Source of the DNA: Escherichia coli
GTDB lineage: Bacteria > Pseudomonadota > Gammaproteobacteria > Enterobacterales > Enterobacteriaceae
DNA: 64,000 bases
Assembly (NCBI RefSeq): GCF_044324785.1
Contig: NZ_CP172127.1
Strand: one strand, 5' to 3'
Part shown: positions 30,822 to 30,843 of the stretch, one piece after another
How the letters are laid out: each line of letters begins with the position of its first letter
Position numbering within the stretch: position 1 is the first letter of the stretch
Notes under the pieces: model-generated
Database searches by the model: none
What the model was told of the DNA's origin: nothing
What the model saw: only the letters and a program-made list of their open reading frames with translations
Translations under genes and position numbers: made by a program

Positions 30822-30843
30822 ATTATAAGTGTACCGTGTACAT
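30822..30843 (-). promoter_or_regulatory. candidate promoter/operator of the toxin-antitoxin cassette (TATAAT -10 plus TGTAC-CG-TGTAC repeat)
   Basis: Minus-strand TATAAT at 30827-30822, about 25 nt upstream of the toxin ATG; adjacent direct repeat of the self-complementary TGTAC motif; -35 is weak. Confidence 0.4.

Follow-up and report, generated by a model that had tools for sequence, protein, structure and literature searches.

The window analyzed here is a stretch of 64,000 nucleotides from the Escherichia coli chromosome (NCBI RefSeq assembly GCF_044324785.1, contig NZ_CP172127.1), in which a cassette of two minus-strand genes lies between envZ and pckA. The two genes encode a HigB2-like toxin and a HigA2-like antitoxin. 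Upstream of the toxin gene, a short inverted repeat is found beside a TATAAT hexamer; this repeat, the candidate operator of the toxin–antitoxin module, is the subject of the present work. The features of the locus are listed below with the evidence for each.

30842..30830, minus strand: 13-bp palindrome TGTAC-ACG-GTACA, proposed operator and equivalent of the promoter-proximal palindrome (O2) of relatives (sequence and comparison)
30827..30822, minus strand: −10 hexamer TATAAT (sequence; the TAnnnT register is kept in relatives)
30850..30845, minus strand: hexamer TACCAA at the −35 position, with a 17-nt spacer and a 2/6 match to TTGACA (read from the sequence)
30807..30804, minus strand: Shine-Dalgarno sequence AGGA, 6 nt before the toxin ATG (read from the sequence)
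30797..30480, minus strand: HigB2-like RelE-superfamily toxin gene, 105 amino acids (open reading frame list, Pfam and PDB match)
30421..30125, minus strand: HigA2-like ("NadS family") antitoxin gene, 98 amino acids, the presumed repressor (NCBIfam, Pfam, PDB and AlphaFold2 (AF2) model)
30894..30864, minus strand: intrinsic terminator of pckA, consisting of a hairpin (30894..30871) and seven T (30870..30864) (terminator scan, inverted repeat and synteny)
30096..30127, no strand assigned: hairpin terminator after the antitoxin gene, common to the convergent envZ (terminator scan; also present at the K-12-type empty site)
32605..30914, minus strand: pckA, flanking gene 5' of the cassette
28742-30094, plus strand: envZ, flanking gene convergent with the cassette

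The toxin has a Pfam match to PF06296 (27.6 bits, cutoff 27), and its residues 3-100 match Vibrio cholerae HigB-2 in a PDB sequence search (E=1.3e-23). The antitoxin is an NCBIfam NadS equivalog (76.8 bits, cutoff 60) with an XRE-type helix-turn-helix (HTH) at residues 39-76 (Pfam HTH_31 and HTH_3), and V. cholerae HigA-2 in the PDB aligns with its residues 4-94 from end to end (E=5e-5). RefSeq labels the pair RelE/ParE family toxin and nadS; the origin of the name "NadS" was not found in the literature. The AF2 model of the antitoxin (mean predicted local distance difference test score, pLDDT, 88.6) contains an N-terminal helix (2-21) followed by C-terminal helices at 39-46, 50-57, 61-68, 76-87 and 89-95, a layout with the toxin-binding segment at the N-terminus and the HTH and dimerisation domain at the C-terminus. 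The best Foldseek matches of this model are the HigA2 structures 5jaa, 8a0x and 5j9i, the last with a template modelling (TM) score of 0.83 and a root-mean-square deviation of about 2 Å. The genes are arranged toxin first, antitoxin second, on the same strand, and the only terminator called follows the antitoxin gene. The toxin-first order, the toxin homology and the domain layout of the antitoxin are those of a predicted HigBA2-type module.

Between the toxin stop and the antitoxin start, E. coli has a gap of 58 nt (30422-30479), while in several other clades the two genes abut or overlap, with gaps from −26 to about +10. No convincing internal promoter was seen in this gap; the TTGAAG found there has only a poor −10 at a 17-nt spacing. 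A scan of positions 30000-31100 against Rfam at E≤1 returned three sub-threshold matches over the terminator hairpins only, and no RNA element.

On the plus strand, positions 30830-30841 read TGTACCGTGTAC; on the coding (minus) strand, 30842..30830 read TGTACACGGTACA. The GTAC cores of the palindrome occupy 30831-30834 and 30838-30841, and a perfect TGTACA is located at 30837-30842. A sequence-only reading of this region had described a tandem repeat of a self-complementary pentamer, TGTAC-CG-TGTAC, directly adjoining a perfect TATAAT about 25 nt upstream of the toxin start. The hexamer is as described, 24 nt before the toxin ATG (30797..30795) on the coding strand, and the letters of the repeat are present at 30830-30841 of the plus strand. 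The tandem arrangement did not hold, as the unit in 36 of 46 loci is the inverted 13-bp palindrome. Nor is TGTAC self-complementary, a property confined to its GTAC core and to TGTACA, and the palindrome does not adjoin the −10 but is separated from it by 2 nt (CT). The terminator of pckA forms the upstream bound of the promoter region, and ATATCTAATTAGCTACCAATA lies between its T run and the palindrome on the coding strand. A repeat scan at the locus reported only the TGTACA hexamer and the terminator, and no direct-repeat family.

Within the window alone, the repeat, TATAAT and their combination are not above chance. The single occurrence of the 12-mer (up to one mismatch) compares with an expectation of 0.14 and is equalled or exceeded in 14 of 100 shuffles. 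GTAC-N3-GTAC occurs once among 173 GTACs, with about 0.5 expected by estimate, and the combined pattern GTACN3GTACN3TAN3T occurs once against 0.33 expected, a number reached by 29 of 100 shuffles. TATAAT is rarer than expected: dinucleotide-preserving shuffles give 18 ± 4 copies over both strands, and the window has 7. The significance of the element comes only from the comparison of homologous loci.

For this comparison, 48 loci were taken from a genome-collection scan using the toxin alignment. They came from Escherichia, Leclercia, Klebsiella, Citrobacter, Kluyvera, Budvicia, Edwardsiella, Photorhabdus, Xenorhabdus, Psychromonas, Alteromonas, several Oceanospirillales, one Pasteurellaceae genome, and two betaproteobacteria. 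Within 150 nt upstream of the toxin gene, GTAC-N3-GTAC was found at 79 sites, and in the remaining ~150 kb of the same 48 loci at none. At least one upstream site was present in 46 of the 48 loci and two in 33. The eight core positions of GTAC-N3-GTAC never vary among the 44 distinct proximal sites, and the three spacer columns are near uniform. An unbiased enumeration of every 4-mer-N(0-12)-4-mer direct or inverted pattern in 46 non-redundant loci was headed by the same motif, which is present in 44 of the 46 and absent from control DNA lying another 300 nt upstream. The comparison points to a rule for the whole family, in which HigB2-like genes are preceded by GTAC-N3-GTAC, and the contrast of 79 sites with 0 in these sequences excludes a chance origin of the motif.

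The position of the motif relative to the promoter is likewise conserved. A TAnnnT hexamer begins 3 nt after the second GTAC (T in 31/44, A in 37/44 and T in 36/44), and the recurrence of the same element at this distance across many genera gives strong comparative support to the earlier proposal that the repeat is a candidate autorepression operator and TATAAT the −10. In about 26 enterobacterial and Xenorhabdus loci, TTGAnn stands exactly 17 nt upstream of TAnnnT, and O2 fills the spacer. A second palindrome, O1, is located upstream of the −35 in the two-palindrome enterobacterial and Xenorhabdus loci. The start-to-start distances between O1 and O2 (L009-L053) are 20-23 bp (6 loci), 29-31 bp (25 loci), 42 bp (1 locus) and 35 bp (1 locus); being near whole helical turns, they would suggest binding to one face of the DNA, possibly cooperative. 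In Oceanospirillales, the two palindromes flank an apparent −10 instead. The palindrome thus shifts relative to the core promoter elements yet always overlaps them, which marks it as operator-like rather than as a promoter element.

The Oceanospirillales loci (L031-L038, L043; −45 to −1) have a further peculiarity. Their apparent −10 (TATACT or TATGCT) lies between the palindromes, and the proximal palindrome ends about 10 nt before the annotated start codon; the transcript leader would be very short or absent.

The order pckA–terminator–cassette–envZ is common to E. coli, Escherichia albertii, Citrobacter, and Kluyvera. Members of this pckA–envZ clade have O2 only, with a strong −10 (TATAAT or TATACT) and 2-3/6 matches at the −35 position, and the pckA terminator occupies the place that O1 holds in relatives, in the window as in the rest of the clade. 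The DNA between the T run and O2 is unalignable between genera, yet GTAC-N3-GTAC-AC(T/C)-TATA(A/C)T is kept. The E. coli form is a reduced version of the family architecture, with one palindrome instead of two phased ones and without the TTGA −35. The sequence-only reading had considered a weak −35 to fit a promoter tuned by occupancy. The −35 is weak (2/6), but most relatives have TTGAnn and a second palindrome, and weakness is not a trait of the family; by comparison, it is a lineage-specific loss rather than a design feature. Compensation of a weak −35 by a stronger −10 was also considered and is unsupported overall (mean −10 score 3.8 vs 4.5); the combination of weak −35 and strong −10 holds only descriptively, in five pckA–envZ loci.

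A small inverted repeat is present around the toxin Shine-Dalgarno AGGA in the pckA–envZ clade (window 30801-30809, minus strand GCAGGATGC). Its Kluyvera counterpart is longer, at −15 in loci L017 and L055, and reads TACGCAGGA[T/A]GCGTA. This repeat could be a weak hairpin that sequesters the Shine-Dalgarno sequence, or a coincidence.

The element is very probably the autoregulatory operator of a chromosomal HigBA2-type operon between pckA and envZ. The footprinted operator of V. cholerae HigA2, which has the same TGTAC half-site and the same promoter position, strengthens its candidacy (PMC11006873). A dimer of the 98-residue HigA2-like antitoxin, alone or as a toxin–antitoxin tetramer, would bind the 13-bp TGTAC-ACG-GTACA, one HTH reading each TGTAC half-site. 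Assuming a transcription start about 7 nt past the −10, the palindrome would cover roughly −27 to −15. Since it lies directly upstream of the −10, the bound repressor would exclude RNA polymerase, and transcription of toxin and antitoxin would be repressed. An operator of this kind would be nothing out of the ordinary for a type II toxin–antitoxin operon, which is expected to regulate itself in this way; its spacing is modestly unusual. What is new is modest as well, namely the family-wide GTAC-N3-GTAC rule and the difference in spacing from a characterised relative. The site provides a candidate operator for an uncharacterised chromosomal toxin–antitoxin module present in about a quarter of complete E. 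coli genomes.

Several points weigh against the operator interpretation. The consensus scan calls no σ70 promoter on the minus strand, because the −35 matches at only 2/6 positions; promoter activity in E. coli is therefore itself putative, and the promoter assignment rests on positional homology with relatives rather than on the consensus scan. In strain FCI1, one half-site is deleted while both genes are intact, which shows that cells can live without the complete palindrome. Among the four base-contacting residues of V. cholerae HigA2, Arg68, Glu71 and Asn72 are replaced by Asp62, Lys65 and Ser66 in E. coli, and Arg77 is the sole one kept (as Arg71). The GTAC cores are also 6 bp closer than in V. 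cholerae, and the V. cholerae structure is therefore not simply transferable. The sequence, its conservation in the family, the symmetry of the site, its constant register to the −10 and the homology of both proteins to HigB2/HigA2 are observed; binding by the antitoxin, repression, the position of the transcription start and the effect of the toxin on binding are what we infer.

Variation within E. coli bears on the same question. Of 5426 complete E. coli genomes, 1324-1329 (~24%) carry the cassette at this position (window 30096-30913), and K-12-type genomes are without it. Because the same synteny occurs in E. albertii, Citrobacter, and Kluyvera, the pckA–terminator–cassette arrangement may be old and may have been lost in many E. 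coli. In carriers, pckA has an additional terminator hairpin, whereas at the K-12-type empty site (L001, 356-432) the envZ hairpin common to both forms is preceded by an unrelated 32-nt filler, GGAGAATATCTATCCAGTATCTTATAGAAAGC.

About 1220 carriers keep the two-unit allele. In five such alleles (the window and four sampled genomes), the open reading frames of toxin and antitoxin are intact, and differences occur only outside the palindrome and the −10. About 108 of 1329 carriers (~8%) have lost one GTACAC unit through a 7-bp deletion (CCAATATGTACACTTATAAT), which corresponds to window 30829-30842, to about 380-400 in the Nissle 1917 locus (L002), and to 815-845 in the FCI1 locus (L064). In 106 of these ~108, among them Nissle 1917, ATCC 25922, and clone D, toxin codon 22 is a stop codon as well, and no carrier genome has this stop without the deletion. 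Nissle 1917 and ATCC 25922 carry the module in decayed form. Constant linkage of the deletion to toxin loss was rejected, as FCI1, with another haplotype, combines the deletion with intact genes for both toxin and antitoxin.

The E. coli sequence GTACAC(G)GTACAC forms 6-bp direct repeats with a 7-bp period. One deletion between them explains the allele exactly, whereas the reverse change, a duplication, would require an extra point change. The two-unit form is therefore probably ancestral and the deletion possibly recurrent. The deletion alleles are probably natural operator half-site mutants produced by slippage, and they offer ready-made material for studies of the operator.

Such losses, together with the 2/6 −35, the lack of a called promoter, and the replacement of the distal palindrome by the pckA terminator, are also compatible with a relic, in which an ancestral operator persists in a truncated promoter of a decaying cassette and regulates nothing of consequence. 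Around three quarters of E. coli genomes are without the cassette, ~108 of the 1329 carriers have lost one half-site (106 of those with the toxin stop), and FCI1 tolerates this deletion with intact genes. This explanation seems unlikely, however, because the two-unit allele is kept in ~1220 carriers, and the five alleles that were read are intact, with palindrome and −10 unchanged while nearby positions vary. Moreover, palindrome and −10 are kept from E. coli to Citrobacter and Kluyvera despite unalignable flanks, and the −10 is a perfect TATAAT.

The slippage-like behaviour of the deletion and the reading GTACAC-G-GTACAC could also suit a true tandem direct repeat, similar to iterons, in which head-to-tail TGTAC or 7-bp GTACACN units are bound by monomers in the same orientation. 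The GTAC core is blind to this distinction, as it is its own reverse complement, and the flanks must decide. The inverted extension TGTA-N5-TACA was found in 36 of 46 loci, against 10 for the direct extension TGTA-N3-TGTA and 13 for TACA-N3-TACA. At 71 of the 79 sites, the bases next to the cores complement one another (T..A 52, C..G 15, G..C 4), and they co-vary as in a palindrome. The C..G flanks belong to the Xenorhabdus clade, in which the recognition helix of the antitoxin also differs (VSASLIQSWEQHRR vs VSYDLVKSWETKRR). In addition, the homologous repressors HigA2 and MqsA are dimers of two-fold symmetry whose binding sites are inverted repeats (PMC11006873; PMC4894380). A tandem site is for these reasons highly improbable. 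The conserved unit is, on the evidence of the flanks, the 13-bp inverted repeat TGTAC-N3-GTACA, a hallmark of sites for a dimer with two-fold symmetry; the tandem TGTAC-CG-TGTAC seen in E. coli arises only from its particular spacer, ACG.

Least probable of all is a site of another regulator, whether YefM–YoeB, whose operators have TGTACA cores (PMC4803016) like the perfect TGTACA here, or an unrelated host factor, or a chance match, as the motif is not above chance in the window alone: the YefM palindromes are 12 bp apart centre to centre and lie upstream of yefM (PMC4803016) while the cores here are 7 bp apart, the motif occurs only upstream of HigB2-like genes in all loci compared and across many genera, its flanks change together with the recognition helix of the cognate antitoxin, and 79 sites against 0 exclude chance.

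The YefM–YoeB operator can be compared with the proposed HigBA2-type operator. It consists of L and S palindromes with TGTACA cores, and like the present candidate it is an autoregulatory site of a type II toxin–antitoxin system that contains TGTACA and lies over the −10 (PMC4803016). The repressor fold is unrelated, the 12 bp from centre to centre differ from the 7 bp here, and the site is tied to yefM, whereas the adjacent genes here are HigB2/HigA2-like. In Acinetobacter baumannii, HigA2 and the HigBA2 complex autorepress their own promoter with the toxin as co-repressor (PMC5906591); the paper on this system gives no operator sequence (PMC5906591).

The E. coli MqsA operator, AACCT-N3-AGGTT, is present as two palindromes in the mqsRA promoter (PMC4894380). 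Its 5-N3-5 palindrome geometry is identical to that found here, and the toxin gene comes first in both systems. Paired promoter palindromes also occur in most of the present family (33/48), but there is one in E. coli. Residues 31-95 of the antitoxin are homologous to the C-terminal domain of MqsA (profile E=2-4e-7, Foldseek TM 0.77). The half-site differs (AACCT vs TGTAC here), as does the toxin (MqsR vs HigB2/RelE-like here), and the antitoxin here is without the N-terminal zinc-binding domain. It scores 31 bits against the NCBIfam MqsA family TIGR03830, below the cutoff of 61.8, with only the C-terminal domain matched. As the 98 residues include no cysteine, the four-cysteine zinc site of MqsA is impossible.

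V. cholerae HigBA2 is the characterised system with the most in common. Both proteins are homologous to those of E. coli, the predicted fold of the antitoxin matches, and the toxin gene comes first. V. cholerae HigA2 binds as a dimer via helices α2-α3, with α4-α5 as the dimer interface, and protects a 24-bp region containing TGTACGC-N5-GCGTACA, after the −35 and over the −10, with an operator dissociation constant of ~25 nM (PMC11006873). For repression in vivo, neither the folded domain nor the disordered N-terminus can be missing (PMC11006873). The disordered segment contacts DNA and is also where the HigB2 toxin binds. Structures of the operator complexes are available (PDB 8a0w, 8a0x; PMC11006873), 8a0x being the HigB2-HigA2 tetramer on operator DNA. 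With the operator sequence as published (PMC11006873), the two sites share an inverted repeat with an outer T-GTAC half-site between the −35 position and the −10. V. cholerae, like E. coli, has a single operator, while most subfamily members have two phased palindromes. The main difference is in the spacing. The GTAC cores are 9 nt apart in V. cholerae and 3 nt apart here, and the 7-N5-7 spacing of V. cholerae (GTAC-N9-GTAC, equivalent to TACG-N7-CGTA) does not occur at this site, N3 being found here and in 46 of the 48 related loci.

Explicit pattern searches in a small sample of distant relatives, comprising plasmid and chromosomal loci, recovered both spacings. Five loci with a V. cholerae-like recognition helix (RT[L/Y]xNWEQG; L054, L056, L059, L060 and L062, from two A. 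baumannii plasmids, Ralstonia, Pseudomonas, and Caballeronia) all have TACG-N7-CGTA at −24 to −28, and only these five have it there. Two Kluyvera loci also match the pattern, but at −15, around the Shine-Dalgarno sequence. Other distant loci (L057, L061, L063) have compact xxTAC-N3-GTAxx sites: AGTAC-N3-GTACT, CTTAC-N3-GTAAG, and CCTAC-N3-GTAGG.

A tentative joint reading, to which we give slightly less than even weight and which is interpretive in its two classes (these rest on eight plus five loci), would place two docking geometries on one (T)GTAC core. The compact, MqsA-like 5-N3-5 form would be used in this E. coli locus, most Enterobacterales, Oceanospirillales, Xenorhabdus, and the plasmid variants, and the wide 7-N5-7 form in V. 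cholerae and its like. On the same tentative footing, the choice of geometry would follow the sequence of the recognition helix. Paired sites would be phased at ~21-23, 29-31 or 42 bp and flank the −35 in Enterobacterales or the apparent −10 in Oceanospirillales, and E. coli would represent a minimal, slippage-prone variant. The same half-site core thus appears at N3 and at N9 within one antitoxin family, with a crystal structure for one of the spacings. Two spacings in a single family provide a tidy system in which to explore how HTH dimers re-tune operator geometry.
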